Notes under the pieces: model-generated
What the model was told of the DNA's origin: nothing
The model's input: the letters and a program-made list of their open reading frames with translations, nothing else
The model's database searches: none
From: Flavobacteriales bacterium
GTDB taxonomy: Bacteria > Bacteroidota > Bacteroidia > Flavobacteriales > BACL11
Length of the DNA stretch: 64,000 nucleotides
Assembly (NCBI GenBank): GCA_014381465.1
Contig: JACNLP010000042.1
Coordinates: forward strand, 64,220-128,219
Direction: 5' to 3'
Program-made: the position numbers and the translations under genes
Shown: piece after piece, positions 13,729 through 47,617 of the stretch
How positions within the stretch are numbered: the first letter of the stretch is position 1
Layout: each line of letters opens with the position of its first letter

Positions 13729-13731
13729 TTT

Positions 13732-13759
13732 GTCATCCTGAATGAAATGAAGGATCTCG
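13732..13759 (+). repeat. REP-like 28-nt unit (GTCATCCTGAATGAAATGAAGGATCTCG)
   Basis: Member of a dispersed family seen at seven or more positions in this window. Has an internal ATCCT/AGGAT stem. Starts 4 nt after the stop of the upstream gene. Confidence 0.7.
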
Positions 13760-13826
13760 TTTTTTAATATGAATAATTTTAACTGAGATGTTTAGACAAT
13801 ATCAACATGACAAAAACACAATAACT

Positions 13827-14291
13827 ATGCTAACTGACTTTAACAACCTACCAGATTCCTCTCGTATTTGGGTGTATGCATCAGATGCTGCTCTTTCTGA
13901 GGAACAACAAAGAGTTATTTCTACAAAAATAGGGGAATATCTAAAAACTTGGGAGTACCATAAAAATCCACTTACTGCAGCTGTTACTATCTTAGAAAAC
14001 CACTTTATTATTATTGCATTAGATGACTCAGAATATGGAGTAGGAGGTTGTTCTATTGACTCTTTACAGAGAATAATTTTGGATTTAGAGAAAGAGTTAT
14101 CCTTGTCTTTTTTGAATAGGTTGAATGTATTTTGCAAAATTGATAATGAAATACAATGTATTCCTTCTTTTAAATTAGGAACTATTGCAAAAGCTGATAC
14201 CCTTTTTTATGACCTTACCATACTTACCAAAAGTGATTTGAACACTTATTTAAAACCAATTAGTAAGGGTTGGTGTGTACATTTGCTATAA
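13827..14291 (+). CDS. Conserved Bacteroidota hypothetical protein (family often mislabelled 'ABC transporter ATPase')
   Basis: The MLTDFNNLPDSSRIWVY... start at 13827 is preferred because the track's 13788 start lies in repeat-derived sequence. The last 39 codons are duplicated as a remnant at 15857-15973. Confidence 0.6.
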   Translation: MLTDFNNLPDSSRIWVYASDAALSEEQQRVISTKIGEYLKTWEYHKNPLTAAVTILENHFIIIALDDSEYGVGGCSIDSLQRIILDLEKELSLSFLNRLNVFCKIDNEIQCIPSFKLGTIAKADTLFYDLTILTKSDLNTYLKPISKGWCVHLL

Positions 14292-14365
14292 GTTAAGTTT
14301 AGCCTGTATAAGTAGTGTAACCTACTGAAAACCAAAACTTCCATTTTTTTTTACTCTTTTTTGTA

Positions 14366-14373
14366 TATCTTTG
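14366..14373 (+). promoter_or_regulatory. Candidate Bacteroidota -7 promoter box TATCTTTG
   Basis: Matches TAnnTTTG, 28 nt upstream of the ATG at 14402. Confidence 0.35.
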
Positions 14374-14401
14374 GCATACAATAACCAATACATATATTGA
14401 G

Positions 14402-15187
14402 ATGAAAAAACTATTTACCCTTTTAGCAGCAGTACTTTTTACAATTCAGATACAGGCACAATGCATTACAGGGATGCCAAATGACACAGCTATTTGTAGT
14501 TATAATCTTGGTGGGGGCAATAGCCTTCCTTTTACATTAGGTGGTAACCCAAGTATTGTTGGGGGAGTAGCTCCTTTTAATTATTCTTGGTCTATTGATA
14601 CATTTACTGCATTTCCTTTCTCGCCAACTCTTAATTATGTTGTTTATGCTTCTCATTTTTTAGATGATACTACTTCTTCAAACCCAACTTTAAACTCTTT
14701 GTTTTATAGTGGTGGTTCTCAAGTTTTCTATCTTACTATTACAGATGCAAATGGACTAAGTTGTGTTGATACCTTTAGATGTCATAGTTCTGAGTGGATG
14801 ATTACTATGTGGGATGCTGGGGATAATGTAATTCTAGGAGATAGTATTGAAATATTTCCAAATGTTGGGATGGAAGGTGCAATTGCTCCATTTACTTATG
14901 TATGGTCACCATCAACCTTTCTTTCTGATACAACTGTGTGTTGTCCTTGGTCAAGTCCAACTACTTTTATTAGTTATTCGGTAGTTGTTACAGACTCTAT
15001 TGGTTGCCAGATTAGTTCGTCTTTTGATGTTTTTGTATTGCCGACATCAATTGAAGAACAAAGTCAAAACAAAACCCTTTTAAAAGTAACTGATGTACTG
15101 GGTAGAAAATCAAAGGGAACAAAAAACACACCTCTCTTTTACATATATGATGACGGAACTGTAGAAAAGAAAATAATAATAGAGTAA
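14402..15187 (+). CDS. Secreted protein with T9SS type-A C-terminal sorting domain
   Basis: Signal peptide MKKLFTLLAAVLFTIQIQAQ. Cys-containing repeats (APFNYSWS, APFTYVWSPSTFLSD). The C-terminal ...KTLLKVTDVLGRKSKGTKNTPLFYIYDDGTVEKKIIIE is a typical Por-secretion tail. Confidence 0.7.
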   Translation: MKKLFTLLAAVLFTIQIQAQCITGMPNDTAICSYNLGGGNSLPFTLGGNPSIVGGVAPFNYSWSIDTFTAFPFSPTLNYVVYASHFLDDTTSSNPTLNSLFYSGGSQVFYLTITDANGLSCVDTFRCHSSEWMITMWDAGDNVILGDSIEIFPNVGMEGAIAPFTYVWSPSTFLSDTTVCCPWSSPTTFISYSVVVTDSIGCQISSSFDVFVLPTSIEEQSQNKTLLKVTDVLGRKSKGTKNTPLFYIYDDGTVEKKIIIE

Positions 15188-15188
15188 T

Positions 15189-15261
15189 GTCATTGCGAAC
15201 AAAGTGAAGCATCTACAGTTATAAAAGTATATGTAGATTTTTCGGCTAACGCTAAAATGAC
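15189..15261. repeat. REP-like hairpin, two inverted units of the GTCAT...ATCTAC family
   Basis: GTCATTGCGAACAAAGTGAAGCATCTACA (15189-15217) faces its inverted partner TGTAGATTTTTCGGCTAACGCTAAAATGAC (15232-15261). Begins 2 nt after the stop of the upstream gene. Confidence 0.7.
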
Positions 15262-15280
15262 ATTCTTTAATAAAGTAATT

Positions 15281-15351
15281 GTCATTCTGAATGAAATGAA
15301 GAATCTACAGTTAATTGCATTTTTAGTTTCTTCACAAGTGCTCAGGAAGAC
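15281..15351. repeat. REP-like hairpin, second inverted pair of the same family
   Basis: GTCATTCTGAATGAAATGAAGAATCTAC (15281-15308) faces a partner at 15323-15351, whose reverse complement is GTCTTCCTGAGCACTTGTGAAGAAACTA. Confidence 0.65.
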
Positions 15352-15383
15352 ATTTTTTAGTTGATTTTTTTTAGAAATAAAAC

Positions 15384-15692
15384 ATGAAAGACCATAATTA
15401 CTTTGTCTATGTCATAACGAATAAAAGCAAATCAGTTTTATATACTGGCGTTACGAATGATTTAATTGTTAGATTACATCAACACAGGGAAGATGCTCTT
15501 GGTAATCAAAAACATTTTGCAGGAAGATATTCATGTTATTATCTTTTATTCTTTGAAAGGTTTGGAAATATTGACCAAGCAATTGCAAGGGAAAAACAAA
15601 TTAAAGGTTGGAAAAGAGAAAGAAAAATTGATTTAATATCATCCTTTAATAAGGATTGGAAATTTTTAAATGATACTATTGAAGAATTATAA
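15384..15692 (+). CDS. GIY-YIG nuclease family protein (small stand-alone URI-domain type)
   Basis: 102 aa. Has YFVYVITNKSKSVLYTGVTNDLIVRLHQHR, then ...REKQIKGWKRERK, the classic GIY-(x10)-YTG plus R and E core. Confidence 0.85.
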   Translation: MKDHNYFVYVITNKSKSVLYTGVTNDLIVRLHQHREDALGNQKHFAGRYSCYYLLFFERFGNIDQAIAREKQIKGWKRERKIDLISSFNKDWKFLNDTIEEL

Positions 15693-15702
15693 ATAAGGAA
15701 TT

Positions 15703-15733
15703 TGTAGATCCGTTCACATTCGTTCAGGATGAC
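15703..15733 (-). repeat. REP-like unit in inverted orientation
   Basis: The reverse complement reads GTCATCCTGAACGAATGTGAACGGATCTACA. With the 15281 unit it brackets the GIY-YIG gene as an inverted repeat. Confidence 0.65.
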
Positions 15734-15856
15734 ACCTTTTTTTACAACTCAGAAAATCTCTTTATTTCTTTAATCTTGTTCTTTAAAAGAATACTGAAAT
15801 TTACCTTTTCTTTTAAGTTGTTTTTCTGTTTTATCTTTTGTCGTTTTGCTATTAAT

Positions 15857-15973
15857 TTAGGAACTATTGCAAATGCTGACACCCTTTTTTACGACCTTAC
15901 CATACTTACAAAAAGTGATTTGAACACTTATTTAAAACCTATAGAAGAGGGGTGGTGTAGTTGCTTTCTATAA
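15857..15973 (+). pseudogene. Orphan 3'-end fragment duplicating the last 39 codons of the 13827-14291 gene
   Basis: Ungapped hand alignment with 14175-14291 gives 99/117 identical nt, and 79/83 over the first 83 nt. Same frame and same stop position. Translation LGTIANADTLFYDLTILTKSDLNTYLKPIEEGWCSCFL versus LGTIAKADTLFYDLTILTKSDLNTYLKPISKGWCVHLL. The upstream part of the listed 65-aa ORF has no homology. Confidence 0.75.
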
Positions 15974-16020
15974 TGTTTATTTGCTTGTCGTTACGATTAA
16001 CTCGTTTTATAGAATTCGCC

Positions 16021-16785
16021 TTAACAAATGCTTTTTATCAACCTCAATTTATGTGTGTGATTTCCAATTTCAGTATTAAAAATTCCTTGTTGGTCAATCC
16101 TATCAATTCTAACTTTTCCTGATGCATGAATAATATGGTTATCCTCTAAGATAATACCAACATGAGTGATTTTTCCTTCATTGTTATCAAAAAAAGCTAA
16201 ATCACCAGCTTCTGATTCTTCTACAAAACTTAATGTAGTACCTACTTCAGCTTGTTGATATGCATCCCTTGGCAGATCAACTCCTTGCAATCTGTAAACC
16301 ATTTGAGTAAAACCAGAACAATCAATTCCTAGAGGAGAACGACCTCCCCATAAATAAGGGGCGTTTAAATACATTAAAGCATTTTCAACTATTTTTTCTT
16401 TTTTTATAAATCCTGGAGTTGTTAATCCATCAAATTGATACATTTCATTATTGATAAGAGCATGACCACTTTTGTAGGATGGTAATATGCTTCCAATAAC
16501 AATTGGTTGATGATGAGTTTTTGTAATAATGTCTAGGATATCTGTGGTGATTGTGGCAACCTCTTTATCTAATTGTTTGTAAATATCTTCCTGAATTTCC
16601 ACCCATTGCTTGTTGCATACCCATCCTTCATAGCTGTCATGAGCTAAACGGATTCTGCTCCATTTTTTTCGAACTTCTAAAACTTTAAAATGCTCCCCAA
16701 AAATAATTTGGTTCACCATTTCTGCCTGATCAGCAGCCTCAGCCCTCATTGGAACAATTGAAAGGTTAGAAATTCCGTATTTCAT
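16021..16785 (-). CDS. C40 (NlpC/P60) peptidoglycan endopeptidase with N-terminal SH3b-like domains
   Basis: 254 aa. Catalytic GIDCSGFTQMVY and ...ITHVGIILEDNHIIHASG motifs. Confidence 0.85.
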   Translation of the reverse strand: MKYGISNLSIVPMRAEAADQAEMVNQIIFGEHFKVLEVRKKWSRIRLAHDSYEGWVCNKQWVEIQEDIYKQLDKEVATITTDILDIITKTHHQPIVIGSILPSYKSGHALINNEMYQFDGLTTPGFIKKEKIVENALMYLNAPYLWGGRSPLGIDCSGFTQMVYRLQGVDLPRDAYQQAEVGTTLSFVEESEAGDLAFFDNNEGKITHVGIILEDNHIIHASGKVRIDRIDQQGIFNTEIGNHTHKLRLIKSIC

Positions 16786-17963
16786 TATATCAACTCAATA
16801 ACCATTGCAGAAGCACCACCACCACCATTACAAATTCCTGCAGCACCAACTTTACCACCATTTTGTTTTAAAACATTAATAAGTGTAACGATAATTCTTG
16901 ATCCTGAACTTCCTAGTGGATGTCCTAAAGAAACTGCACCACCATTTACATTTACCTTACTAGCATCTAAATCTAAAATTTTCATATTTGCTAAACCAAC
17001 TACTGAAAATGCTTCATTTAGTTCGCAATAATCAACATCAGTTGTTGTTAATCCTGCTTTTTTTAAAGCAATTGGTAATGCTTTAGCAGGAGCAGTAGTA
17101 AACCATTCTGGTTCATGAGCTGCATCAGCATAACTTACAATCTTAGCAAGAGGAGTAATGTTTAATTCTGCAGCTTTTTCAGCACTCATAAGTACTAATG
17201 CTGAGGCACCATCATTTAGTGTTGAAGCGTTAGCAGCTGTAACAGTTCCTTCTTTATCAAATACTGGGCGTAAAGCTGGGATTTTCTCCATTTTCACATT
17301 TTTATACTCCTCATCTTCAGTGATAACTAAAGCATCACCTCTTCTTTGAGGAACTTCAACAGAAACAATTTCATCAGAGAATTTTCCATCTTTCCATGAT
17401 TGTGTACTTCTGTTATATGATTCAATTGCAAAGGCATCTTGTTCTTCTCTTGTAAACTCCATTTCAGTAGCACATTTCTCTGCACAAACTCCCATGTGAA
17501 CTCTATTGTATACATCAGTTAAGCCATCTTTTACAAGACCATCAACTAACTTCATGTCTCCTAATTTCTGTCCTGTTCTTCCTTTTGCAAAATAATGAGG
17601 CACACTTGACATATTTTCCATTCCACCAGCAATTACAACATCATTATCTCCAGATAAAATTGTTTGTGCAGCAATCATTATCGATTTCATTCCTGAAGAA
17701 CATACTTTATTTATTGTAGTACAAGGTACATCTTGTGAAAGACCAGCAAACATTGCAGCTTGCCTAGCTGGGGCTTGCCCTAGATTTGCTTGCAAAACAT
17801 TTCCCATAAAAACTTCATCAACAATTTTATTGTCAATTCCTGCTTTTTTAATTGCTCCTTTTATTGCTGATGCTCCTAATTTTGTAGCAGATACTGATGA
17901 TAAACTTCCTCCAAAACTTCCCATTGGAGTACGCACTGCTGATACAATTACTACTTCTTTCAT
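16785..17963 (-). CDS. Acetyl-CoA C-acetyltransferase (thiolase II)
   Basis: 392 aa. Has NKVCSSGMKS (active-site Cys), NEAF, GHPLGSSG and GICNGGGGASAMVIE signatures. Confidence 0.95.
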   Translation of the reverse strand: MKEVVIVSAVRTPMGSFGGSLSSVSATKLGASAIKGAIKKAGIDNKIVDEVFMGNVLQANLGQAPARQAAMFAGLSQDVPCTTINKVCSSGMKSIMIAAQTILSGDNDVVIAGGMENMSSVPHYFAKGRTGQKLGDMKLVDGLVKDGLTDVYNRVHMGVCAEKCATEMEFTREEQDAFAIESYNRSTQSWKDGKFSDEIVSVEVPQRRGDALVITEDEEYKNVKMEKIPALRPVFDKEGTVTAANASTLNDGASALVLMSAEKAAELNITPLAKIVSYADAAHEPEWFTTAPAKALPIALKKAGLTTTDVDYCELNEAFSVVGLANMKILDLDASKVNVNGGAVSLGHPLGSSGSRIIVTLINVLKQNGGKVGAAGICNGGGGASAMVIELI

Positions 17964-18042
17964 TATATAAATATTTAGATTTTTAGATTTGGTGCGAATT
18001 TAGGTAAATTATACTTATTTTCGCTACTGACATTAACTCATT

Positions 18043-20151
18043 ATGAAAAAGGTTTTTTCTTCAATTCGTGACAATCACGACTCCATTTTTAAAGCACTAT
18101 TATTTTTTATTACGCTTTTTATTATTGTTTACTTTTTCCCTAGACAAGTAAATTTTAAATACGAATACTCAAAAGGAAAACCTTGGTTACAAGAAACAAT
18201 AATAACTCCTTTTGATTTTTCAATTTTAAAATCTCAGGAGCATTTAAAAAAAGAAATAGAGGAAGTAAAAAAAGAAAATCTACCCATTTTTGTTTTTAAT
18301 GAAGATGTTTTTGAAAAAAAAGGAGTAGAATTTATTGAAAATTTTGAGCAGAAATGGTCGGAAGACAAAAAAATAAAGAAAGATAAAGGATTTACTTTTT
18401 TTAATCTTTTTAAGAAAAAAGAAGAGAAACATTTAACTGCTAAATATACTTTAGCTAATTATGGATTAAGTGTTTTAGATTATCTCTATACAAATGGAAT
18501 AGTACAATTATCTGATGATTTGCAATGGAAAGAGGAGGATTTTCAGTTGCTAGTACAAAAGAAAAATATTGCAGAAAAAAGGACATTAGATAAACTTTTT
18601 ACCATTAATTCTGCTGTGGATTATATTAATTCAATAGGAAAATTATCATCCCAAAAATCGGATTTTATTGTTCCACTTCTTTTGGATGCGATAAATCATA
18701 ATGTGTTTTATGATAAACTAGCAACAGAAAAGATGTTAGCTTACGAATTAGAAAATATTGTAATTTCAAGAGGGATGCTGCAAAAAGGACAAATTGTAAT
18801 TCAAAAAGGAGAATTGATAAATGAAGATAAATTTCAAATATTATCTTCATATCAGAAGGAATTTGAAAATCAGCATTGGAGTAATGCCTCTGTGAATTTT
18901 GTATTGCTTGGGCAAGTACTTTTAGTTTTTGTTGCTTTTTTAATATTTTTCCTTTTTTTAAAACAATACAGGCCTGAGGTGTTGCAGGATAGCACAAAAG
19001 TAACGCTCATTTTATTTTTAATTATTGCTATGATTGTACTTACTTCATTTGTTGTAAAATGGAATGCAAAGTTCTTATATATTATTCCATTTTGTTTTTT
19101 ACCTATTGTTTTAAAAGCATTTTTTGATACGCGTCTAGCACTCTTTACTCACCTTATTACTATTCTGATAATTGGCTTTATTGTGCCTAATGGTTTTGAG
19201 TTTGTGTATCTGCAACTTATTGCAGGAATTGTATCAATCCTAACTGTTTTGCAGATGTACAAACGAGCTCATTTATTTGTGTCAGTCATAAAAATTGTAG
19301 GTATATATTGGCTTACATATTTTGCTTTGGAGATAACTCATGAGGGAAGTATCCTTCATATAAATTGGGTTAACTTTTTATATTTTGCTGGAAGTGGAGT
19401 GCTTACACTTTTTACTTATCCGCTTATTTTTGCTTTTGAAAAAGTATTTTCTTTAGTTTCTGATGTTTCTCTTTTGGAGCTTTCGGATACCAATAGTCCA
19501 CTTTTAAGAAAATTGGCGAATCAGGCGCCTGGTACTTTTCAGCATAGCTTACAAGTAGCTAATTTAGCAGAAGAAGGGATAATTCAGATTGAAGGAAATG
19601 CTTTACTTACAAGGGCAGGGGCACTTTATCATGATATTGGAAAGCTAAAAAGTCCTATGTATTTTATTGAAAATCAAAGCTCAGGACTAAATCCTCATGA
19701 TGAACTTGAGTTTGATGAAAGCACTGATATTATTATTAATCATGTAAGAAACGGGATAGAAATTGCAAATGAATATAATCTACCTGAAGAACTGATTGAT
19801 TTTATACGTACTCACCATGGAACTACTACTGTTCATTATTTTTACAAGCAATTTATTTCCAATTTCCCTGAGGAAGAGGTGGATATTAAAGATTTTACAT
19901 ATCCTGGTCCAAAGCCATTTTCAAAAGAAACTGCTGTACTAATGATGGCAGATTCAGTGGAGGCAGCAGCAAGAAGTTTAAAGAAACCTAATGCAGATAA
20001 TATCAATGATTTGGTGGAAAATATAATAGGCAAACAAATTGATAGTGGGCAATTTGTAAATGCCGATATTACCCTAAAAGAAATTACCCATATAAAGAAA
20101 CTCTACAAAAAGAAATTAGTAAATATCCATCATGCTAGAGTAGAGTATTGA
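18043..20151 (+). CDS. 7TM-receptor/HD-domain phosphohydrolase (HDIG; PgpH-like)
   Basis: 702 aa. Extracellular N-domain, about 7 TM helices, and a C-terminal HD domain (FQHSLQVANLAE...GALYHDIGK...HHG). Confidence 0.75.
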   Translation: MKKVFSSIRDNHDSIFKALLFFITLFIIVYFFPRQVNFKYEYSKGKPWLQETIITPFDFSILKSQEHLKKEIEEVKKENLPIFVFNEDVFEKKGVEFIENFEQKWSEDKKIKKDKGFTFFNLFKKKEEKHLTAKYTLANYGLSVLDYLYTNGIVQLSDDLQWKEEDFQLLVQKKNIAEKRTLDKLFTINSAVDYINSIGKLSSQKSDFIVPLLLDAINHNVFYDKLATEKMLAYELENIVISRGMLQKGQIVIQKGELINEDKFQILSSYQKEFENQHWSNASVNFVLLGQVLLVFVAFLIFFLFLKQYRPEVLQDSTKVTLILFLIIAMIVLTSFVVKWNAKFLYIIPFCFLPIVLKAFFDTRLALFTHLITILIIGFIVPNGFEFVYLQLIAGIVSILTVLQMYKRAHLFVSVIKIVGIYWLTYFALEITHEGSILHINWVNFLYFAGSGVLTLFTYPLIFAFEKVFSLVSDVSLLELSDTNSPLLRKLANQAPGTFQHSLQVANLAEEGIIQIEGNALLTRAGALYHDIGKLKSPMYFIENQSSGLNPHDELEFDESTDIIINHVRNGIEIANEYNLPEELIDFIRTHHGTTTVHYFYKQFISNFPEEEVDIKDFTYPGPKPFSKETAVLMMADSVEAAARSLKKPNADNINDLVENIIGKQIDSGQFVNADITLKEITHIKKLYKKKLVNIHHARVEY

Positions 20152-20229
20152 TTTAATTACTAAATTGTTTGTTGAGTTGAACAAATCAATGTTATTACTC
20201 ATATTTAATATATGTTAAAGAAGCCCAAC

Positions 20230-21279
20230 CTACATTAAACTACTTTCAATTGCTTTATGATCTGAAAGTTTTTGCTTGTGAGTTGTAAAGGTATTTGTTT
20301 TAAAATCAGGACTATGCAAGATATAGTCAATTCGTAAAAAAGGAATTTTACTAAAAAAAGTGCTACCAAAACCATTTCCCTTATTTAAAAACGAATCTTG
20401 TAATCCTTTCGAGATTTTATGGTACGCAAAGGAGTTTGGCGTATCATTAAAATCACCGCAAACAATAATTTTGTAGGGGGATTTTTCTATATGTTGTTTT
20501 ATCACTTCTACTTGCATGGCTCGTTTCTGGAAAGATTTTTTTAATCTTTTAGCGATTCCAATCACTCCATTTTTTATCGCTTCTTTGCTCATTTCAGGAT
20601 TTTCCATAAAAGCCAAATCACTTTTATCGAACCAATTGGAAGCCAGATGAATATTGTAAACCCTAAAGGTATCTTTTTTAAAAATCATATCCGAAAAAAT
20701 ACAAGTGTTGTTCATTCTCTCTCCTTTTATACTAACTGTTCCTTTATTTATTTGCGGAAACTTGCTGTAAATTGCCATGTGCCACTGGCTTTTTTTATTT
20801 TGCAATCCGATATGCTGAAAAGGATAATCCAATTTTGGCAACTTTTTTGGAGCATAAAACTCCTGAATACAAAGAATATCCGTATTTCTTTTTCTAAATA
20901 AATCAAAAATCTCATTTTTAACTCCATCTTTTTTTATCCAATTGTAGGCATTAAAAAGTCGTACATTATAACTCATTATGCTAAATGTATTTTTATTTTC
21001 ATTTACTGCTTCTGGACTTCCTATTAATGTGCCAATAGAATTCATGCCGATTAAAAGCACTATTAGGTTAGCCCAAAATGGTTTTTTCATTACAATAAGC
21101 CAAAAGGTAAGGAAAAGGATATTTAAAATAAAAAAAACAGGAAACAAAAGACCAAAAAAAGCAATTGGCCAAAAAATACTTGGGCTAACAAAAGGAGCTA
21201 AATAGGAGAGGAGTTGCCCTATTAAAAATAAGGAGTTTATCAGAAAAAGAATCTTATTTATAATAGATAATTTCTTCAA
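20230..21279 (-). CDS. Membrane-anchored endonuclease/exonuclease/phosphatase (EEP) family protein
   Basis: 349 aa. Three N-terminal TM helices, then EEP motifs (SYNVRLFN, CIQEF, GDFNDTPNS, SDHKAI). Confidence 0.7.
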   Translation of the reverse strand: MKKLSIINKILFLINSLFLIGQLLSYLAPFVSPSIFWPIAFFGLLFPVFFILNILFLTFWLIVMKKPFWANLIVLLIGMNSIGTLIGSPEAVNENKNTFSIMSYNVRLFNAYNWIKKDGVKNEIFDLFRKRNTDILCIQEFYAPKKLPKLDYPFQHIGLQNKKSQWHMAIYSKFPQINKGTVSIKGERMNNTCIFSDMIFKKDTFRVYNIHLASNWFDKSDLAFMENPEMSKEAIKNGVIGIAKRLKKSFQKRAMQVEVIKQHIEKSPYKIIVCGDFNDTPNSFAYHKISKGLQDSFLNKGNGFGSTFFSKIPFLRIDYILHSPDFKTNTFTTHKQKLSDHKAIESSLM

Positions 21280-21282
21280 GCT

Positions 21283-22161
21283 TTACTTTTTACTTTCTTT
21301 AAATAAAATATCTTTCTCTTGTTTTGTTAGTCCTTCATAGCCAGATTTAGCAATCTTATCTAAAATCTTATCAATTTTAGCTTGGTTTAGTACTTTTTGA
21401 TTCCTAAAGTCTTGATCTGATTTTCTTCTACTATATGTCTTTCTTAGTTTTGGTTTTCTTGTAAAATAGACAGCCAAATAATCCATTATTTTATTAAAGC
21501 CACTTGCAATATCATTTCCTCCATTTAGTTGCTTTACATACAAATATCCAAAAAATGCACCTCCCAAATGTGCTATATGTCCGCCCGCATTTCCCTTTGG
21601 AATACTTAAAATATCTAAAATAATACTTAAAATAGCGATATGTTTTAATTTTACATTTCCAATAAGAAACAACCTAATAGAATAATTGGGCGATTTGGTA
21701 GCAATAGCCATAATAATAGCCAGCACTGAGGCAGAAGCCCCCATTGCTATAGCATTTGGCAAAGCAGTAGCAAAAACAGGAAAAAGATTAAAGGAAATGA
21801 TAAAAAGAACAGCACCAGATATTCCGCCAAGTACATAAGTGCTTATTAGTTTTTTGTTATCGAAAAAGGAGAGGAAAATTTGACCTCCAAAATAGAGCCA
21901 AAGCATATTAAAAAGTAAATGAATAAAGTTTTTATGCAAAAACATATAACTTATTATGCTCCATGGTTTTGTTATAAAACTTGGGATATTTGCTGGCAGA
22001 GTAAAGTAGTTTAAAAACTCCCATGAATTTACCATAAAAAGAAATGATAAGACACTTAAAACACTAGTAATCAGGAAAGCACCTACATTTATGTAGATGA
22101 GTTTGGTAAGCGAATCTCCTCCCTTAAAGTTCTTTTTTATATCCTCCAATATAGTACTCAT
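21283..22161 (-). CDS. Rhomboid-family intramembrane serine protease with C-terminal soluble extension
   Basis: Has HLLFNMLWLYFGG, GASASV (Ser motif) and HIAHLGGAFFG (His motif). Confidence 0.8.
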   Translation of the reverse strand: MSTILEDIKKNFKGGDSLTKLIYINVGAFLITSVLSVLSFLFMVNSWEFLNYFTLPANIPSFITKPWSIISYMFLHKNFIHLLFNMLWLYFGGQIFLSFFDNKKLISTYVLGGISGAVLFIISFNLFPVFATALPNAIAMGASASVLAIIMAIATKSPNYSIRLFLIGNVKLKHIAILSIILDILSIPKGNAGGHIAHLGGAFFGYLYVKQLNGGNDIASGFNKIMDYLAVYFTRKPKLRKTYSRRKSDQDFRNQKVLNQAKIDKILDKIAKSGYEGLTKQEKDILFKESKK

Positions 22162-22878
22162 TTAGTAAAAAGTATTTGAGCTTTTACGCCAATATTTTAT
22201 CAAAAGAAAACCAAAAATCATACCTCCCAAATGAGCAAAATGTGCTACATTATCAGCTGGATTATTACTAATTCCAGCATACAATTCTAATAAACCATAA
22301 ATAATTACAAAATACTTTGCCTTGATGGGGAAAGCAAAATAGATATATAAAAGTGCATTGGGGAAAAGCATTCCAAAAGCCAATAACACGCCAAATACTG
22401 CACCAGAAGCACCAACAGTTGGGGTGTGAATTAATTGAGTTAATTTTAAAGAATTTGGATTAGATCGATTATAAAGCCCTTCTTTAGCTAATTCTAAAAT
22501 TTCAGGGATCCCATTGGCGAGTTCAAATATTTGATATTGACTTACTCCTAAATGAATGGCTGCAGCTCCTAATCCTGTAATCATGTAATAAATGAGAAAC
22601 TTCTTAGCTCCCCATACATTTTCTAGCACTTTACCAAACATCCAAAGAGCAAACATATTAAAGAAAAGATGGGTAAAATTACCATGCATAAAAAGATGAG
22701 TAACTAATTGGTGTGGCATAAAATCAGCTGACTGGAATTGGTGAAGTCCGAAAAATCGGTACATATCAAATCCCATACGACCTAAGGTGATGGTTGCTAA
22801 AAAGAATAAGCCATTAATGATTAGTAAATTCTTAACTACTTCTGGTAAATGCCTAAAACTGCTTGGTCTGTAATTCAT
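22162..22878 (-). CDS. Rhomboid-family intramembrane serine protease
   Basis: Has HLFFNMFALWMFG, GASGAVFG and HFAHLGGMIFG. Confidence 0.85.
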   Translation of the reverse strand: MNYRPSSFRHLPEVVKNLLIINGLFFLATITLGRMGFDMYRFFGLHQFQSADFMPHQLVTHLFMHGNFTHLFFNMFALWMFGKVLENVWGAKKFLIYYMITGLGAAAIHLGVSQYQIFELANGIPEILELAKEGLYNRSNPNSLKLTQLIHTPTVGASGAVFGVLLAFGMLFPNALLYIYFAFPIKAKYFVIIYGLLELYAGISNNPADNVAHFAHLGGMIFGFLLIKYWRKSSNTFY

Positions 22879-22887
22879 TTAAGGTGT

Positions 22888-24648
22888 TTAAAATTGTTCT
22901 GAAATATCGCTTAAAGCAAGGTTAATAATTATTGGGTTTCCATTAGGACATATATTTGTTATATTACAAACAAACAGGTTATTTACAAGTAAATTTATTT
23001 CTTCTTCCTTTAATTGTTTTCCTTTTTTTATTGCTAAGCTTTTTGCCAACCCTTTTGCAATTTTCTCTTTTGTTGAAACTGTTAAATTTTCATTATTCTT
23101 TTCTTGCTCCAAAATTTCATCAAAAATTATCTCCAAATTTTCTTTAGTACATTCAGTGGGTATTCCGTTTATTTCAACCTTGTTTTCTTCTTTTAACTCA
23201 AATCTAAAGCCTAAATTGTATAAAATTTCCTGCATTTGTTTTATCAATGTAAAATCAGTATTGGAGAAAGTAAGGCTATAAGGAAAAGCCAATTGTTGCG
23301 ACTGAGCCTTTCCTTTTTCTAATAAATTCTTATAATATTCAAAAAGCACCCTTTCATGTGCCCTTTGCTGATGAATAATGACAATACCATTTTCTTGCTC
23401 AAAAAGGATAAACTGATTAGCTATTTGAATCATTTTTTTATTTTCCAACTGAGTTTCCCATTTTACTTCCAACTTTTGCTGACTTGCAATTTCCGTTTCC
23501 CTAATCACATCTCCCCATAAAAAGATTTCGGTAGGATTTTCTTCTTCAAAAGGATTGTAATTAGGATTAACTTTTATAGTTGGTTGTTTATAAGCAGTTC
23601 CTTTTTCTTTTTTAGGGGTATTAAATGTTATTTCCTGATTAAAATCTATAGTTGGAGCTACATTATACTTTCCTAAGGAATGCTTTACTGCTGAACGAAT
23701 TATAGCGTAAATGGATCTTTCATCCTCAAACTTTATTTCCGTTTTTGTAGGATGAATATTAATATCAATCAATTTTGGATCAATATCTAAATACAAAAAA
23801 TAAGAAGGAAAATAATTATCGGGAATTAAGCCTTCATAAGCTTTTTTAACGGCATGATGCAGATAAGCACTTTTGATAAATCGATTATTTACAAAAAAGT
23901 ATTGTTCTCCACGCGTTCGTTTGCAAAATTCAGGCTTTCCTATAAAGCCGCTTAAATCTACCAAAGTTGTTTCTTCCTTAATCGGTACTAATTTCTGATT
24001 ATTTTTTGCTCCAGTAATATTTACAATTCTTTGTCTTTTATTTGATTTTTCTAAATGAAAATGTTCTATATCATCTAAATACAAACTCATATTAATTTCT
24101 GGATTTGCTAAAGCAACTCGGCTAAATTGCTCGATTATATGTTTTGTTTCTACTTTTTCTGATTTTAAGAAATTTCTACGAGCTGGCACATTGTAAAAAA
24201 GATTTTTAATGGAGATACTCGTTCCATTAGCACAGGAGCAATCCTCTTGTTTTTTTAGCTCACTTCCCTCAATTATAATATGTGTTCCTAATTCCTTATC
24301 TATTAGTTTGCTTTTTAACTCAACATGGGAAATTGCCGCCATTGATGCCATAGCTTCTCCTCTAAATCCCATAGTTTTTAGAGCAAACAAATCATCTGCT
24401 TTATTTATTTTTGAAGTTGCATGCCTCTCAAAACTCATACGAGCATCTGTTTGGCTCATTCCACAACCATTATCTACTACTTGTAAAAGGGTTTTTCCAG
24501 CATCTTTTATATAAAGCTTGATATTTGTTGCTCCAGAATCAAGTGCATTTTCCAACATTTCTTTTACAGCAGAAGCTGGGCGAGAGATAACCTCACCAGC
24601 GGCAATTTGGTTTGCTACATGTTCTGGAAGTAGTTGAATAATATCCAA
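22888..24648 (-). CDS. mutL: DNA mismatch repair protein MutL
   Basis: 586 aa. N-terminal GHKL ATPase (IAAGEVISRPASAVKEMLENALDSGATNI, DNGCGM) plus a C-terminal dimerisation domain. Confidence 0.95.
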   Translation of the reverse strand: MDIIQLLPEHVANQIAAGEVISRPASAVKEMLENALDSGATNIKLYIKDAGKTLLQVVDNGCGMSQTDARMSFERHATSKINKADDLFALKTMGFRGEAMASMAAISHVELKSKLIDKELGTHIIIEGSELKKQEDCSCANGTSISIKNLFYNVPARRNFLKSEKVETKHIIEQFSRVALANPEINMSLYLDDIEHFHLEKSNKRQRIVNITGAKNNQKLVPIKEETTLVDLSGFIGKPEFCKRTRGEQYFFVNNRFIKSAYLHHAVKKAYEGLIPDNYFPSYFLYLDIDPKLIDINIHPTKTEIKFEDERSIYAIIRSAVKHSLGKYNVAPTIDFNQEITFNTPKKEKGTAYKQPTIKVNPNYNPFEEENPTEIFLWGDVIRETEIASQQKLEVKWETQLENKKMIQIANQFILFEQENGIVIIHQQRAHERVLFEYYKNLLEKGKAQSQQLAFPYSLTFSNTDFTLIKQMQEILYNLGFRFELKEENKVEINGIPTECTKENLEIIFDEILEQEKNNENLTVSTKEKIAKGLAKSLAIKKGKQLKEEEINLLVNNLFVCNITNICPNGNPIIINLALSDISEQF

Positions 24649-24658
24649 TTTTCTTTTT

Positions 24659-24901
24659 TTAAAAAGTCAGTATTAAATAGGTCAACAAAAATAATCCAAT
24701 AATGATAATAACTAACCTTTTTGTTCTGTTTCCTTTTGCAATTTGCTTGTTATTTCTTTTAAAAAATAGCCCCTTTGTTCTTTTTCCTGTTTTTTTTAAT
24801 TGTTCCAATTCCTCTTTTCTTTTGTCATAATACCTTGGTTTATAGTCAAATATTTTTGATTTAGGTGTTTTTAAAAAAGATGGTATTCTAGGTGCTATCA
24901 T
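24659..24901 (-). CDS. Small basic protein with C-terminal TM anchor (conserved upstream partner of mutL in flavobacteria)
   Basis: 80 aa, Lys/Arg-rich, ending in LVIIIIGLFLLTYLILTF. A TAATTTTG box sits 4 nt upstream of its ATG. Confidence 0.4.
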   Translation of the reverse strand: MIAPRIPSFLKTPKSKIFDYKPRYYDKRKEELEQLKKTGKRTKGLFFKRNNKQIAKGNRTKRLVIIIIGLFLLTYLILTF

Positions 24902-24905
24902 TTTG

Positions 24906-24913
24906 CAAAATTA
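24906..24913 (-). promoter_or_regulatory. Candidate -7 box TAATTTTG, leaderless geometry
   Basis: The minus strand reads TAATTTTG-CAAA-ATG, leaving only 4 nt between the box and the start codon at 24901. Confidence 0.4.
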
Positions 24914-25016
24914 AAGAAATATTCATCTTATCAAATAGAAAAAATATTTAATATTGCTGATAATTGACAAATTATATCGTTAGTTAAAAAACATAAATAT
25001 TTATTTTTACCAAAAT

Positions 25017-27941
25017 ATGACAAAACGAGATATTTTAATAGTTTTTTTAGTTATTTTTTTTACAAAATGTGTTTTTTCGCAAGGGTTATGGAAGCCAGTA
25101 TTTCATACAAATGATAATTATTGGGTTGATAGCGTTTTAGCTAATTTATCAGAAGATGAACGCATTGCACAACTTTTTATGGTTGCCACTTATTCCAATA
25201 AAGAAGCTTCTGAAAAAGAGAAAATTTCTGCACTAATAAAAGAGTATAAAATTGGCGGATTGATGTTTTTGCAGGGCAGCCCTACAAAGCAAATAAATCT
25301 TACAAATTATTTCCAATCTATTTCCAAAACTCCACTGATGATTGCCTTAGATGCCGAATGGGGAGTTGCCATGCGACTAGATTCTGTAATGCGATTTCCA
25401 TGGCAGATGACTTTGGGTGCAGTACAAAATGAAGATTTGATTTATAAAATGGGGGTTGAGATTGCAAATCAGTGCAAATTATTGGGTGTGAATATCAATT
25501 TTGCACCAGTTGCGGACATTAACAGTAATCCAAAAAATCCAATTATAGGAAATCGTTCCTTTGGAGAATCAATTCAGAAAGTATCCAGTTTTTCTGCTGC
25601 TTATATGAAGGGAATGCAAGATAATGGTGTTTTGGCTTGTGCTAAGCATTTTCCAGGACATGGCGATACGGATTCTGATTCGCACAAAACTCTTCCTGTT
25701 ATTCGTCATAGTAAATATCATTTAAACAAAATAGAAATAGTGCCATTTAGGCGATTGATTACAAAAGGATTGGGAAGTGTGATGGTAGCTCATTTAAGAA
25801 TTCCAGCCATTGATGTTACCAAAAATTTAGCTTCTTCATTATCTAAAAAAGTAGTAACTAATCTCTTGAAGAAAGAACTTGGTTTCCAAGGGTTAATTTT
25901 TACAGATGCATTAAACATGAAAGGCGTAAGTAAATATTTTGAGGCAGGAGAACTAGATGTGAAAGCACTTCTAGCTGGAAATGACATTTTACTTATGTCA
26001 GAAGATGTGCCGGTAGCAATAGAGAAAATAAAAGAAGCAATTTTAGATGGGAAAATTACGCAAGAGGATATTGATAATAGATGCAGGAAAATATTGATGG
26101 CAAAAAAATGGATGGGGTTAGATGATTTTCAGCAAATAAAGAAGCATAATATAACGGCAAGAATTAATAATTCTGATGCAGAATTAATAAATAGAAATTT
26201 GGTAGAAAATTCGCTCACGCTTTTGCAGAACTATGAAAATATTATTCCACTTGAACGCTTAGATACCCTAAAAATAGCATCTATTACAATAGGAGAAAAA
26301 GGAAGTTATTTTACTCAGATGCTTTCGAATTATTCTCCAATTACCCACTTTACAATTAAGGAAAATCCAACTGCAAAAATGCAGAAAGAATTATTAGACA
26401 AATTAATAGGGTACAACCTAGTAATTATAGGGATTCACAAATCAAATGAAAGCCCTTGGAAAAAACATAAAATTGAAAGAAATACCGATTTATTTTTACA
26501 AACTTTAGCGATACAATCAAAAATAGTAGTTACTTTATTTGCAAACCCTTACACCATAAACGATTTTTTGTTTACTAATAATTTTGATGGATTGATAATG
26601 GCATATCAAAATAGCAAAATTGCACAAGAGTTTGCAGCTCAATCTATTTTTGGGGGTATAGGTTTGAGTGGAAAATTGCCAATTTCTACTCAGCATTATA
26701 AAATAAATTTTGGGGTAAAAACAAATGCTTTTCGCTTAAAATACACTATTCCAAAAGAGGTAGGGATTAGAGAAGATCTTCTATATAAAATTGATAGTTT
26801 AGCAGAAAATGCAATTAAACAAAAGGCAACTCCCGGCTGTCAGATTCTTATTGCAAAAGAGGGGAAAGTATTTTTTCAAAAATCTTACGGACATCATACT
26901 TACGCCAATAAAATTAAAGTAAAAAATTCAGATTTATATGATTTAGCCTCTATTACTAAGATTGCAGCAACTATGCCTATGCTTATGAAAATGCAAGAAG
27001 ATGGAGGTTTTGGTTTGGGTTACAAATTAGGTAAACTTAATCAATATCTTTATCATACAAATAAAGGACATTTAAGGGTAAGAGATGTGTTGGCTCATCA
27101 AGCTGGTTTGCAAGCTTGGATACCTTTTTATAAGCAAACTATTGATAAGGATAATATATTAAGAGACACTCTTTATAGTATTAAATATTCTGAAAAATAT
27201 TCAATAAAAGTAGCTGAAGATTTGTATTTGCACCATTCTTATTCTGATAGTATTTTGTTGCAAATTAGTGAGAGTGAATTATTAGAAAATAAAGAATATC
27301 AGTATTCGGATTTGGGGTATTATTTATTTAAAGATATTATAGAAAAAAAACATAACAAAGCATTAAATCTTTTGGTAGAAGATGAGTTTTATAAGCCATT
27401 GGGCTTAGCTACAATGGGCTATTTGCCAAAGTTAAAATTTAATAAAAACAGAATAATACCAACTGAGAATGATGATTACTTTAGAGATCAACTCCTGATT
27501 GGAGATGTACATGATATGGGAGCAGCAATGCTTGGAGGTGTTGGTGGGCATGCAGGGCTTTTTTCTAATGCCAATGATTTAGCAATTTTAATGCAAATGT
27601 ATTTGCAAAATGGAAGTTATGCTGATAGACAATATCTTTATCAATCCACTATAAAAGAATACACAAAATGTCAGTTTTGCAGAGATGAAAATAGAAGAGG
27701 AGCTGGTTTTGATAAGCCTGCATTACAAAGCCAAGATGGTGGACCAACTTGCAGATGTGTTTCTTATTTAAGTTTTGGGCATTCTGGTTTTACCGGAACA
27801 TTAGCTTGGGCAGATCCTGAAACTAAAATAGTTTATGTATTTTTATCCAATAGAATTCATCCGACAGCCGATAATAAAAAACTACTGGATATGGATGTTA
27901 GAACTAATATTATGCAAGTAATTTTTGATGCAAACCAATAA
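25017..27941 (+). CDS. Fusion protein: glycoside hydrolase family 3 (NagZ-like beta-N-acetylhexosaminidase) + class-C-type serine beta-lactamase/transpeptidase-fold hydrolase
   Basis: 974 aa with a signal peptide. GH3 motifs are NFAPVADIN and KHFPGHGDTDSDSHK. The C-terminal half has LASITKIAAT (SxxK) and HSGFTGT. Confidence 0.8.
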   Translation: MTKRDILIVFLVIFFTKCVFSQGLWKPVFHTNDNYWVDSVLANLSEDERIAQLFMVATYSNKEASEKEKISALIKEYKIGGLMFLQGSPTKQINLTNYFQSISKTPLMIALDAEWGVAMRLDSVMRFPWQMTLGAVQNEDLIYKMGVEIANQCKLLGVNINFAPVADINSNPKNPIIGNRSFGESIQKVSSFSAAYMKGMQDNGVLACAKHFPGHGDTDSDSHKTLPVIRHSKYHLNKIEIVPFRRLITKGLGSVMVAHLRIPAIDVTKNLASSLSKKVVTNLLKKELGFQGLIFTDALNMKGVSKYFEAGELDVKALLAGNDILLMSEDVPVAIEKIKEAILDGKITQEDIDNRCRKILMAKKWMGLDDFQQIKKHNITARINNSDAELINRNLVENSLTLLQNYENIIPLERLDTLKIASITIGEKGSYFTQMLSNYSPITHFTIKENPTAKMQKELLDKLIGYNLVIIGIHKSNESPWKKHKIERNTDLFLQTLAIQSKIVVTLFANPYTINDFLFTNNFDGLIMAYQNSKIAQEFAAQSIFGGIGLSGKLPISTQHYKINFGVKTNAFRLKYTIPKEVGIREDLLYKIDSLAENAIKQKATPGCQILIAKEGKVFFQKSYGHHTYANKIKVKNSDLYDLASITKIAATMPMLMKMQEDGGFGLGYKLGKLNQYLYHTNKGHLRVRDVLAHQAGLQAWIPFYKQTIDKDNILRDTLYSIKYSEKYSIKVAEDLYLHHSYSDSILLQISESELLENKEYQYSDLGYYLFKDIIEKKHNKALNLLVEDEFYKPLGLATMGYLPKLKFNKNRIIPTENDDYFRDQLLIGDVHDMGAAMLGGVGGHAGLFSNANDLAILMQMYLQNGSYADRQYLYQSTIKEYTKCQFCRDENRRGAGFDKPALQSQDGGPTCRCVSYLSFGHSGFTGTLAWADPETKIVYVFLSNRIHPTADNKKLLDMDVRTNIMQVIFDANQ

Positions 27942-29067
27942 AAAATATAAAATAGGAATTATTTGCTACCCTACTTATGGAGGAAGTGGGGTAGTGGCTA
28001 CTGAGCTTGGTATGGCACTTGCTGAGAAAGGGCATGAAGTACACTTTATTTCCTATAATCAACCATTCCGACTAGATGTTTTTTGTGATAAAATAAGCTT
28101 TCATGAAGTAAGTGTGCCTGATTATCCTTTATTTGAATACATTCCTTACGAACATAACCTTACTGCCAAATTAGTGGATGTGGTTTTGCACGAAAAGTTA
28201 AATTTATTGCATGTTCACTATGCGATTCCTCATGCCTCAGCTGCACTTTCGGCAAAGCAGATTTTAGCATCACAAGGGATTCATATTCCTATTATTACTA
28301 CCTTGCACGGAACAGATATTACCCTCTTAGGAAAAGATAAATCTTTTAAATCAGTGATAGAGTTTGCAATTAATAATTCAGATGTGGTAACGGCTGTTTC
28401 TAAGAGTTTAAAACAGGAAACGCTTGACTCTTTCAATATCAAAAAAGAAATTCAAGTAGTGCCTAATTTTATTGATTCCAGCTTGTATAAGTATGAAAAT
28501 AATCCCAATTTAAGAAGGAGTCTTGCAAAGGATGATGAAAAGATTATTATTCATATTTCTAATTTTAGAAAAGTGAAAAGGGTACAAGATGTGCTGAAAG
28601 TATTTGCAAAAATTAAAAAAGAAATACCTTCTAAATTACTATTAATAGGAGATGGTCCTGAAAGATTAGAAATGGAGGAGTTATGTAGAAACCTAGATTT
28701 ATGCGATCATATTCGTTTTATTGGGAAGCTAAAAGCAGTTGAGAAAATTTTATCTGTTTCCGATCTTTTCCTTTTGCCTTCTGAAACTGAGAGTTTTGGT
28801 TTGGTTGCTTTGGAGGCAATGGCATCTAAAGTTCCAGTTATTTCTACAAATACTGGCGGTTTACCAGAGGTAAATAAAGATGGAAAAACAGGTTTTCTAC
28901 TAAACATGGGAGATGTTGATGGAATGGCTGAAAAGGCCATTTTTCTTTTGAGTAATAAGGATAAATTAAAAGAATTTAAAGAGTGTGCTTACAAACATGC
29001 CATGCAGTTTGATTTACCAAATATCTTACCAATGTATGAAGATATTTATGAGAATTTAAGTAAATGA
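27928..29067 (+). CDS. bshA: N-acetyl-alpha-D-glucosaminyl L-malate synthase (bacillithiol biosynthesis glycosyltransferase)
   Basis: N-terminus YKIGIICYPTYGGSGVVATELGMALAEKGHEVHFISY and the C-terminal ESFGLVALEAMASKVPVISTNTGGLPEV are typical BshA-type GT4. ATG at 27928 preferred over TTG at 27925. Confidence 0.8.
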   Translation: MQTNKKYKIGIICYPTYGGSGVVATELGMALAEKGHEVHFISYNQPFRLDVFCDKISFHEVSVPDYPLFEYIPYEHNLTAKLVDVVLHEKLNLLHVHYAIPHASAALSAKQILASQGIHIPIITTLHGTDITLLGKDKSFKSVIEFAINNSDVVTAVSKSLKQETLDSFNIKKEIQVVPNFIDSSLYKYENNPNLRRSLAKDDEKIIIHISNFRKVKRVQDVLKVFAKIKKEIPSKLLLIGDGPERLEMEELCRNLDLCDHIRFIGKLKAVEKILSVSDLFLLPSETESFGLVALEAMASKVPVISTNTGGLPEVNKDGKTGFLLNMGDVDGMAEKAIFLLSNKDKLKEFKECAYKHAMQFDLPNILPMYEDIYENLSK

Positions 29068-29645: not shown

Positions 29646-29761
29646 GCAATTAAATACCGAATTAGGAAAAACACAATCATCAAATCGAGAAAAAGTAGAA
29701 TCCCAAAAACTGTTGGATTCATATCGTATAACTCTTTTAGTTTTTCCCAAATATTCTTCAT
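29642..29761 (-). CDS. Possible 39-aa small membrane protein (not in ORF track)
   Basis: Hand translation gives MKNIWEKLKELYDMNPTVFGILLFLDLMIVFFLIRYLIA*. It starts 1 nt after the stop of the 62-aa ORF and has one hydrophobic helix. There is no homology evidence. Confidence 0.3.
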   Translation of the reverse strand: MKNIWEKLKELYDMNPTVFGILLFLDLMIVFFLIRYLIA

Positions 29762-29762
29762 C

Positions 29763-29951
29763 TTACTCTTTTAGCTTGCATAAATGATAAGCCAAGATTG
29801 CAGGGAGGATTGTTCCCAAAATACTTGCCCATTGCGGAACAGAGCAGTTATTTATTGTGAGTTCCCACCCAAGAACATAACGCAATAAATGCAAAACAGC
29901 TACCATTGTAAAGATAAGGCAAGCTAGGTTTAATGTTGTTTTTTTGTTCAT
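29763..29951 (-). CDS. Small two-helix membrane protein
   Basis: 62 aa with two hydrophobic segments. Packed 1 nt downstream of the DUF899-like gene. Confidence 0.4.
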   Translation of the reverse strand: MNKKTTLNLACLIFTMVAVLHLLRYVLGWELTINNCSVPQWASILGTILPAILAYHLCKLKE

Positions 29952-29952
29952 A

Positions 29953-47457: not shown

Positions 47458-47514
47458 ACAGAAGTTAGACCGCTACGCTTTTAGATAATAGATATGATAA
47501 AAAGAAAAAATGCT

Positions 47515-47542
47515 GTCATCCTGAATGTAATGAAGGATCTCG
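47515..47542 (+). repeat. REP-like 28-nt unit (GTCATCCTGAATGTAATGAAGGATCTCG)
   Basis: 27/28 identical to the 13732 unit. Lies in the ftsY-rimO spacer. Confidence 0.7.
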
Positions 47543-47617
47543 TTTTTGAACATTTTTACAATTTAATGATTAAATAATCTATTGAGTTTTTATTCTTTCT
47601 CCTGATTCCTTTAAAAT

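Follow-up and report, generated by a model that had tools for sequence, protein, structure and literature searches.

Gene X and its repeated 3′ end

The stretch of DNA analyzed here, which we call the window, comprises 64,000 nucleotides (nt) of contig JACNLP010000042.1 (positions 64,220 to 128,219, forward strand) in the Flavobacteriales bacterium assembly GCA_014381465.1. It contains a conserved gene, here gene X, whose 3′ end is repeated downstream; we refer to the copy within the intact gene as copy A and to the downstream copy as copy B. Between the copies are two open reading frames (ORFs), one for a secreted-type protein of 261 aa, which we call the cargo, and one for a GIY-YIG protein of 102 aa, the product of a gene that we call ssn, and beyond copy B lies a convergent NlpC/P60 (C40) peptidase gene (Table 1). 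A preliminary description of this DNA had explained the arrangement as a homing-like or island-type insertion that brought in the nuclease gene together with a replacement end for X. The evidence below points rather to a scar of recombination.

The X protein has no match in Pfam or NCBIfam, and among 5.8 billion clustered proteins it found a 100% match only in its own species, the next best being 71% identical. A genome scan with X identified the nearest relative (L001; the same genome again as L108, a 1.1-Mb contig), whose neighboring proteins are 92 to 97% identical to those of the window. Divergence of X from this relative is limited to nt 60 to 300 of the gene, which are 48 to 68% identical to L001 between flanks at 90 to 94%. 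Alleles of X, like those of the HDIG gene farther along, are strongly mosaic in the clade.

An ungapped comparison of 14175-14291 with 15857-15973 bears out the repeat as first described: 99 of 117 nt are identical, including 79 of the first 83, and the two copies agree in frame and stop position, translating as LGTIAKADTLFYDLTILTKSDLNTYLKPISKGWCVHLL and LGTIANADTLFYDLTILTKSDLNTYLKPIEEGWCSCFL, each ending in the stop. A repeat finder lengthened the pair to 14167-14291 and 15849-15973 (125 nt, 84%), with 29 nt as the longest identical run. The similarity is significant, since blastn of the 64-kb window against itself returned the pair over 88 nt at 94% identity with an E value of 2.8e-33. Upstream of 14167 similarity to X is not significant (best local score 25; shuffles 19.8 ± 2.5, maximum 28). 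Differences between the copies number 4 in the first 83 nt and 14 in the last 34 nt, and both tails retain the residues conserved in the family (KPI.EGWC...L, then the stop). The tail of copy A, KPISKGWCVHLL, is identical to L001/L108 at 32 of 34 nt, while that of copy B, KPIEEGWCSCFL, is similar to the KPISEGWCSSFL class of other lineages and equally distant from all sampled X alleles. Copy B is an orphan 3′ fragment, as the preliminary description had it; A and B are distinct alleles of the X C terminus and not a parent and its decayed copy.

At least 20 independent contigs show the same arrangement; one of them is 118 kb long with 178x coverage, and others of 3 to 4 kb span X to C40. Because independent contigs from several samples reproduce it, the arrangement is not an assembly artifact.

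Table 1. Positions in the window of gene X, the two repeat copies and the features around them
Feature	Coordinates	Strand	Description
SRM-like hairpin pair	13731..13815	+	between CCG gene and X; pattern and fold
Gene X	13827..14291	+	conserved 154-aa protein, always after CCG gene
Repeat copy A	14167..14291	+	3′ end of intact gene X
Leader downstream of X	14292..14386	+	shared with nearest relative except for poly-T length
Secreted-cargo gene cassette	14387..15189	+	ORF 14402-15187, 261 aa, C-terminal sorting-type domain
SRM-like hairpin pair 1	15188..15262	+	two inverted TGTCAT...ATCT units
SRM-like hairpin pair 2	15280..15352	+	orthologous to pair upstream of ssn in L119
ssn	15384..15692	+	102-aa single-domain GIY-YIG protein, Neisseria SsnA homologue
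Single SRM-like unit	15706..15734	-	downstream of ssn, inverted relative to 15280-15306; conserved in L119
GT2 remnant	15745..15864	-	last 40 codons of family-2 glycosyltransferase gene
Illegitimate joint, GT2 remnant / X fragment	15849..15864		homologies overlap, imperfect TT.GG.A microhomology
Repeat copy B	15849..15973	+	orphan 3′ fragment, different X allele
Spacer	15974..16020		47 nt between copy B and C40 stop codon
NlpC/P60 (C40) peptidase gene	16021..16785	-	collinearity with relatives restarts exactly at stop codon
Solitary SRM-like unit	47514..47547	+	between ftsY and next gene, without nearby ssn

Make-up of the interval and gene order in relatives

An ORF and domain search bore out the earlier statement that the interval between the copies encodes neither integrase nor transposase, and no other recombinase was found among its ORFs; an Rfam scan of the entire window returned no family. 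On alignment, the interval 14167-15848 is shown to be a mosaic of three parts, namely, the X 3′ end with its leader, the cargo cassette and a piece of a second locus. Collinearity of the leader with L108 stops at about 14373-14382. The cargo cassette is 84% identical in nucleotide sequence to a gene of another contig, L112, where it occupies a third context in an array of genes with C-terminal sorting-type domains (CTDs), adjoining a tRNA U5-methyltransferase. The C-terminal 47 aa of the cargo are common to many LRR, plastocyanin and PKD proteins at 75 to 94% identity; homologues of the cargo bear PF18962, and an NCBIfam search with the protein itself gave no match. Its earlier label as a protein secreted by the type IX secretion system can be kept in tentative form, the sole basis being a sub-threshold SprB match together with the PF18962 homologues that share those 47 aa. 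The L112 array (L112:1607-3060) is a tandem array in which each gene carries the same sorting-type domain and follows a conserved AATACATAATACT-ATG start context, a layout that would permit cassette shuffling via recombination between common 3′ ends.

The third part, a piece of ~0.8 kb, matches a second conserved locus of relatives with the order aroQ, cargo, hairpins, GIY-YIG gene and family-2 glycosyltransferase (GT2) gene. Window 15232-15873 aligns with 7848-8489 of L119 (648 nt, 85% identity), and the locus also matches the CTD end of the cargo gene; the piece consists of the CTD-coding end of the cargo gene, the hairpins known as SRM, ssn, one further SRM unit and the final 40 codons of GT2. 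By tblastn, residues 299 to 338 of the 338-aa GT2 protein match the minus strand from 15864 to 15745 (75% identity, E 1e-12), a match also backed by nucleotide alignment and a comparison of the C-terminal peptide, and the GT2 gene of relatives is likewise convergent on ssn. The DNA that separates the last hairpin from copy B, provisionally designated an anonymous spacer, is the GT2 remnant, and that designation was rejected. The notion of a discrete GIY-YIG cassette does not survive this comparison, because 15232-15873 is DNA of the aroQ-cargo-ssn-GT2 locus down to the last 40 codons of GT2.

A three-way alignment of the window, L119 and X resolved the joint at which this piece meets copy B. 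The GT2 and X homologies overlap there and share only TT.GG.A, so the left edge of copy B is an illegitimate joint of two gene fragments, in which GT2 is fused to the final 38 codons of another X allele. At this joint GT2′, normally found farther to the right, runs back into X at position -125. Such a topology is what a tandem duplication leaves at its joint, or what results when a circle integrates or integration is of the ends-in type; it does not fit an inversion or simple replacement. The duplicative topology proposed in the preliminary description is borne out by the joint. The same joint bears on the view that the interval is a site-specific integrative island with the two copies as attL and attR. 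Direct repeats at a gene 3′ end, a restored ORF and an identical run of 29 nt would suit such an island; however, neither an integrase nor an excisionase was found in or near the interval, which measures just 1.7 kb and is pieced together from chromosomal fragments, with a chromosomal GT2 fragment at its right end and the native leader of X in its left part instead of foreign att-bounded DNA. We find an island scarcely credible, and the GT2 remnant at the joint effectively refutes it.

A metagenome scan with the C40 protein recovered 80 loci, and ~20 X-centered loci were compared as well. In relatives, CCG and X are followed by a short variable stretch, then by kdsA, DUF5723, p670, RarA, C40 and thiolase genes on the opposite strand and by HDIG in the orientation of X, an ancestral order on which the loci agree. 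RarA directly follows C40 in 70 of the 80 C40 loci, starting no more than a few bases from the C40 stop, and p670 adjoins C40 in 3; at the other side, kdsA abuts or overlaps the end of X (L001/L108, L004, L095 and L114-L118). The block from RarA through p670 and DUF5723 to kdsA thus separates X from C40 by about 5 to 6 kb, 6.1 kb in the nearest relative. Kept in alignment with L108 up to 14373, the window rejoins it from 16020, at the C40 stop, with 1646 nt replacing 6092 nt, and kdsA, DUF5723, p670 and RarA are all four absent from the 64 kb. The idea that copy B marks the point of convergence between an intact X and C40 fails on this gene order, with RarA next to C40 and the block between C40 and X. 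An empty site was found in none of the C40-centered or X-centered loci and in none of the same-species contigs, all of which are occupied.

Several further observations concern this part of the chromosome. RarA is deleted at L080:4967-5090, where a remnant of its 5′ end follows the C40 stop and p670 comes next; L095 and L096 also lack RarA. In L003 (L003:6449-12447, compared with window 32641-37592), X converges directly on the homologue of an 839-aa gene (window 32653-35172), and the 18 kb of 14292-32640 are therefore arranged differently there; this layout again points to a hot spot of rearrangement on the 3′ side of X. Among contigs of metagenome-assembled genomes bearing X, 3 of 5 end within 0.7 kb after it. 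Tandem units of ~42 nt lie between a 110-aa gene and kdsA in the nearest relative (L108:11049-11270; L001:7025-7280), one strand reading KDRDIVTISKDM-type repeats. A 7TM-HD receptor gene (window 18043-20151) is dimorphic in the clade, being 84 to 87% identical to a minority (L046, L058, L077-79, L082 and L088) and 57 to 61% identical to the rest, including L108; the adjoining thiolase and C40 remain at about 90%. An apparent synteny between the region upstream of X in L004 and window 46.7-47.4 kb was rejected as Ffh/FtsY paralogy.

The Ssn protein, its hairpins and their other loci

The identification of a GIY-YIG protein was right: PF01541 covers residues 5 to 81 of 102 (E 2.3e-14), with no second domain, and the protein has no NCBIfam match and no PDB sequence match. 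A tblastn search against plasmid records returned two 2.17-Mb Neisseria gonorrhoeae records (E 2e-12). These records (L111, NZ_CP119142.1; also NZ_CP119140.1) are held as plasmids in PLSDB but are evidently N. gonorrhoeae chromosomes, and they are almost unannotated. The gonococcal ORF is ringed by 10 canonical NTS within 700 nt, and its protein matches ours over the full length (38% identity over 88 aa, E 2e-21). The Ssn family of nucleases (cd10448 type), which cut single-stranded DNA (ssDNA) at specific sites, was founded on SsnA of Neisseria meningitidis (Chenal et al., Nat Commun 2025, PMC11893778). Its members are single-domain GIY-YIG proteins of about 94 to 100 aa. Genes of this family are typically flanked by NTS/SRM hairpins, SsnA in Neisseria cuts incoming ssDNA and reduces the integration of NTS-bearing DNA, and the Ssn homologues tested show ssDNA cleavage only (PMC11893778). 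The matched ORF is evidently the gonococcal counterpart of SsnA, and by homology the protein encoded in the window is a member of the Ssn family and a predicted ssDNA nuclease.

Hairpins and inverted units bracketing the gene, as noted in the preliminary description, were recovered by both pattern and fold, with SRM-like units at 15188-15352 upstream of ssn and at 15706-15734 downstream. The ssn homologues of L108, L119, L128 and L134 are likewise flanked by hairpin repeats on both sides. Each unit has the design GTCAT, stem, loop, complementary stem and ATC, which is the outer signature of NTS, and the 5-bp stems covary (ATCCT/AGGAT, ATTCT/AGAAT, ATGTT/AACAT and ATTTT/AAAAT). The published SRM pattern, HGTCWYN(0-2)YYVSBRHN(0-5)WNVSBRGN(0-2)RNCYNB, has 7 exact matches in a 1.65-kb Neisseria locus but none in the window and six Bacteroidota ssn loci, the window units being 1 to 4 substitutions off; since the pattern matches the Neisseria and not the Bacteroidota loci, the units appear to be a divergent variant of the hairpin. 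Of the eight SRM-like units in the window, seven lie within 2 kb of X; the unit at 47514-47547 is 97% identical over 34 nt to 13731-13764. In Winogradskyella psychrotolerans (L134:3959-4970), an ssn homologue lies between inverted TGTCATTCTGAACG.AGTGAAGAATCT units, and a unit near it, TGTCATTCCTGCGAAAGCAGGAATCT, is almost an NTS in design.

These features bear directly on homing, in which a GIY-YIG nuclease would have cut an empty X/C40 site and repair would have copied in a 1.7-kb cassette with a replacement 3′ end. Such an event would yield a duplicative topology with a restored ORF, needs no integrase and would leave two ends that are different alleles, and the outlying position of both the X body and the B tail is compatible with B as the resident end. 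However, the 102-aa protein has a single domain and is homologous to SsnA along its full length. A domain search found the catalytic domain only and no DNA-binding domain or extension for a long double-stranded DNA (dsDNA) target, so the protein lacks the part with which homing endonucleases recognize a duplex target, and ssDNA is the only substrate cut by the homologues tested (PMC11893778). Furthermore, the ends of the supposed cassette lie inside GT2 and in the cargo CTD and are not element boundaries, the empty site is missing from all 80 C40 loci and ~20 X loci, orthologous copies of ssn are stable at another locus, and duplicated gene ends are absent from the other ssn loci. Altogether, we regard a homing insertion as very improbable.

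That other locus carries ssn orthologues that are 93 to 94% identical and lies in the L108 genome and on at least four other contigs, with the conserved order XerD-like, aroQ, variable cargo, hairpins, ssn, convergent GT2 and LpxL. Just past ssn-GT2-LpxL in the L108 genome, L119:10883-16309 contains a tyrosine integrase, a PD-(D/E)XK protein and a type I methylase gene and is probably an integrated island. In the species of the window, ssn is single copy, and all contigs with an exact match to it show the X/C40 context only. GIY-YIG copies next to duplicated gene ends were looked for at six other ssn loci, which lie in unrelated housekeeping contexts, and none was found. Immediately upstream of X, L108 has a paralogue of ssn (100 aa, 62% identical) that L110 lacks at that site, although the two strains share an identical X protein and 3863 of 3876 nt upstream (99.7%). 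The 383-nt difference between L108:9517-10000 and L110:3876-3976 consists of GTTAC, an SRM arm and the ssn paralogue and has a 31-nt direct repeat of the hairpin arm, TGAGATGTTTCGACTAACGCTCAACATGACA, at its borders; it could be an insertion or a deletion between the 31-nt repeats. In a three-way alignment with L108 as the filled form and L110 as the empty form, window 13729-13826 corresponds to the empty form of this site.

An element resembling an insertion sequence (IS), moved from the aroQ-GT2 locus to X by imprecise read-through transposition along with flanking DNA, would draw on several of these observations. The SRM-ssn-SRM architecture resembles that of an IS, as remarked in PMC11893778; the 383-nt ssn unit with its 31-nt SRM-arm direct repeats is present in L108 and not in L110; and the single copy of ssn in this species lies at a locus other than that of its orthologues. 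However, the moved piece ends within neighboring genes and not at hairpins, its right end lying 115 to 130 nt past the last SRM, inside GT2, and the junctions falling in gene fragments. No transposase is encoded in the interval, we know of no transposase chemistry for Ssn, and a deletion between the 31-nt repeats explains the difference between L108 and L110 equally well. We consider transposition of this kind unlikely.

A further candidate is a tandem duplication within the genome, with GT2′/X′ as its novel joint and with later deletions and the conversion of one of the X tails by DNA of another strain. The topology of the joint is exactly that of q joined to p, as in a tandem duplication; in the L108 genome 101 kb separate X from the ssn-GT2 locus, the two having one orientation; and the dimorphism of HDIG and X alleles shows that mosaic recombination occurs commonly in the clade. 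On the other hand, at least three further events are needed, ssn is single copy in the species, and the tails differ at 14 of 34 nt with conserved residues kept, which implies a later conversion confined to about 210 nt. We rate this history as doubtful, although it is the strongest of these competitors.

Origin of the repeat and comparison with known systems

The patchwork between X and C40 appears to be lineage specific and made by recombination, with at least one illegitimate joint. In our judgment the repeat is probably, if by no means certainly, the scar of a duplicative and largely illegitimate recombination at a rearrangement-prone site, with ssn and its hairpins (an Ssn/SRM module) as a passenger. 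The most economical history would have two steps. First, a lineage without the block would have had X, with a B-type tail, 47 nt from C40. A 1.69-kb piece would then have been taken up and integrated via the 83-nt conserved stretch of X, after which the intact gene would carry the tail and leader of the incoming DNA as copy A and the resident tail would be left as orphan copy B. The ssn gene with its cognate hairpins would have traveled as a passenger, at most biasing where the incoming single strands ended. This polarity matches the preliminary description, which took B for the displaced original end and A for its replacement: the two ends are distinct alleles, and B as resident and A as incoming end is plausible because the body of X is an outlier allele and the B tail is likewise equidistant from the sampled alleles. 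However, copy A and the leader are collinear with the nearest relative, and for that reason the sampled sequences do not settle which end is the replacement. A working idea that A is native and B foreign, suggested by the same collinearity with L108, was downgraded in light of the outlying X body and B tail, though import of B is a possible alternative.

Five points weigh against this history. The sampled sequences do not fix how many events took place, in what order they came or which of A and B is the resident end. X converges directly on C40 in no relative at any of the C40-centered or X-centered loci, and the state before insertion is hypothetical. The absence of the block, like that of the rest of GT2, is established for the 64-kb window and not for the whole genome. 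The 47-nt spacer and the B tail are unmatched in 838 kb of related loci, a search that included the lineages with the most similar protein tail, and the spacer is also unmatched elsewhere in the window. Finally, a causal role for Ssn/SRM in the instability of the X site is kept in play by the clustering of all but one of the eight SRM units near X, within 2 kb, and by the paralogous ssn beside X in L108. A facilitating role of ssn is possible but unproven. The mosaic X and HDIG alleles recall the raised diversity of dRS3/NTS-adjacent genes in Neisseria, for which dRS3-adjacent diversity is cited in PMC11893778. In its strongest form, such a role would make Ssn/SRM modules active agents of genome remodeling in marine Flavobacteriales: Ssn would cut ssDNA, whether incoming or replicating, adjacent to SRM hairpins, illegitimate joining would rescue the ends, and the gene would hitchhike to new sites. 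We think this quite unlikely. If true, it would represent nuclease-promoted, transposase-free mobility in which cargo moves along and host gene ends are duplicated or replaced, and it would account for two ssn copies and seven of eight SRM units beside the hyperdivergent X.

If the recombination-scar reading holds, a tidy "insertion with a replacement gene end" beside a nuclease gene can be an ordinary scar of recombination. The nuclease belongs to the recently described Ssn family and not to the homing endonucleases. The comparison also adds uncultured marine Flavobacteriales to the range of Ssn/SRM modules, here with a variant hairpin that escapes the published pattern. Furthermore, it offers natural cases in which closely related genomes carry an ssn module at different loci, one such module appearing to have moved with fragments of its neighbors, and a case in which near-identical strains differ in the presence of a module.

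The locus resembles several known systems in part. REPtrons, which are built on RAYT, an IS200/IS605-like enzyme, and REP/REPIN sequences, share with it a single gene within inverted hairpin repeats and doublets elsewhere in the genome; the enzyme here is a GIY-YIG nuclease and not an HUH/Y1 transposase, and we know of no strand-transfer activity for it. Free-standing GIY-YIG homing endonucleases, such as the T4 Seg proteins and I-TevI, have the same catalytic domain and a gene between host genes, but they possess a separate DNA-binding domain, cut dsDNA at a defined target and spread by co-conversion without target duplication, whereas the protein here consists of the catalytic domain only and its gene is flanked by fragments of unrelated genes. 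Closer in outcome is homology-facilitated illegitimate recombination or Campbell-type integration, with one end anchored by homology (the 83 nt of X), the other at a microhomology, and foreign and resident alleles juxtaposed. The classical outcome of the homology-facilitated process, reportedly described by de Vries and Wackernagel in 2002, is replacement with deletion, whereas duplication of the anchor, as seen here, would need a circular or ends-in intermediate.

In Neisseria, the minimal mobile elements and the dRS3/NTS-flanked variable regions of Saunders and Snyder have repeats at their edges and a gene content that varies between lineages. Like them, the locus has a variable interval between conserved genes, edge repeats and a mosaic adjacent gene, and in both cases recombination of imported DNA best accounts for the exchange; unlike them, it contains a clearly illegitimate joint between gene fragments and lacks a conserved housekeeping block. 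The closest counterpart is the Ssn/NTS-SRM system itself (SsnA, PMC11893778). Both have a single-domain GIY-YIG protein of ~100 aa (38% identity along the whole length), oriented hairpin repeats that flank the gene on both sides, cluster around it and follow the GTCAT-stem and stem-ATC design, and unusually divergent genes next to the repeats. The Bacteroidota units, known here from sequence alone, differ in their AT-rich 5-bp stems and loops of 11 to 12 nt, which the published SRM pattern misses, and in occurring mostly as inverted pairs that form hairpins of 75 to 85 nt. As an apparent rearrangement hot spot, the X-C40 interval is well suited to testing whether Ssn/SRM modules influence the end-points of recombination, as has been proposed for Neisseria.

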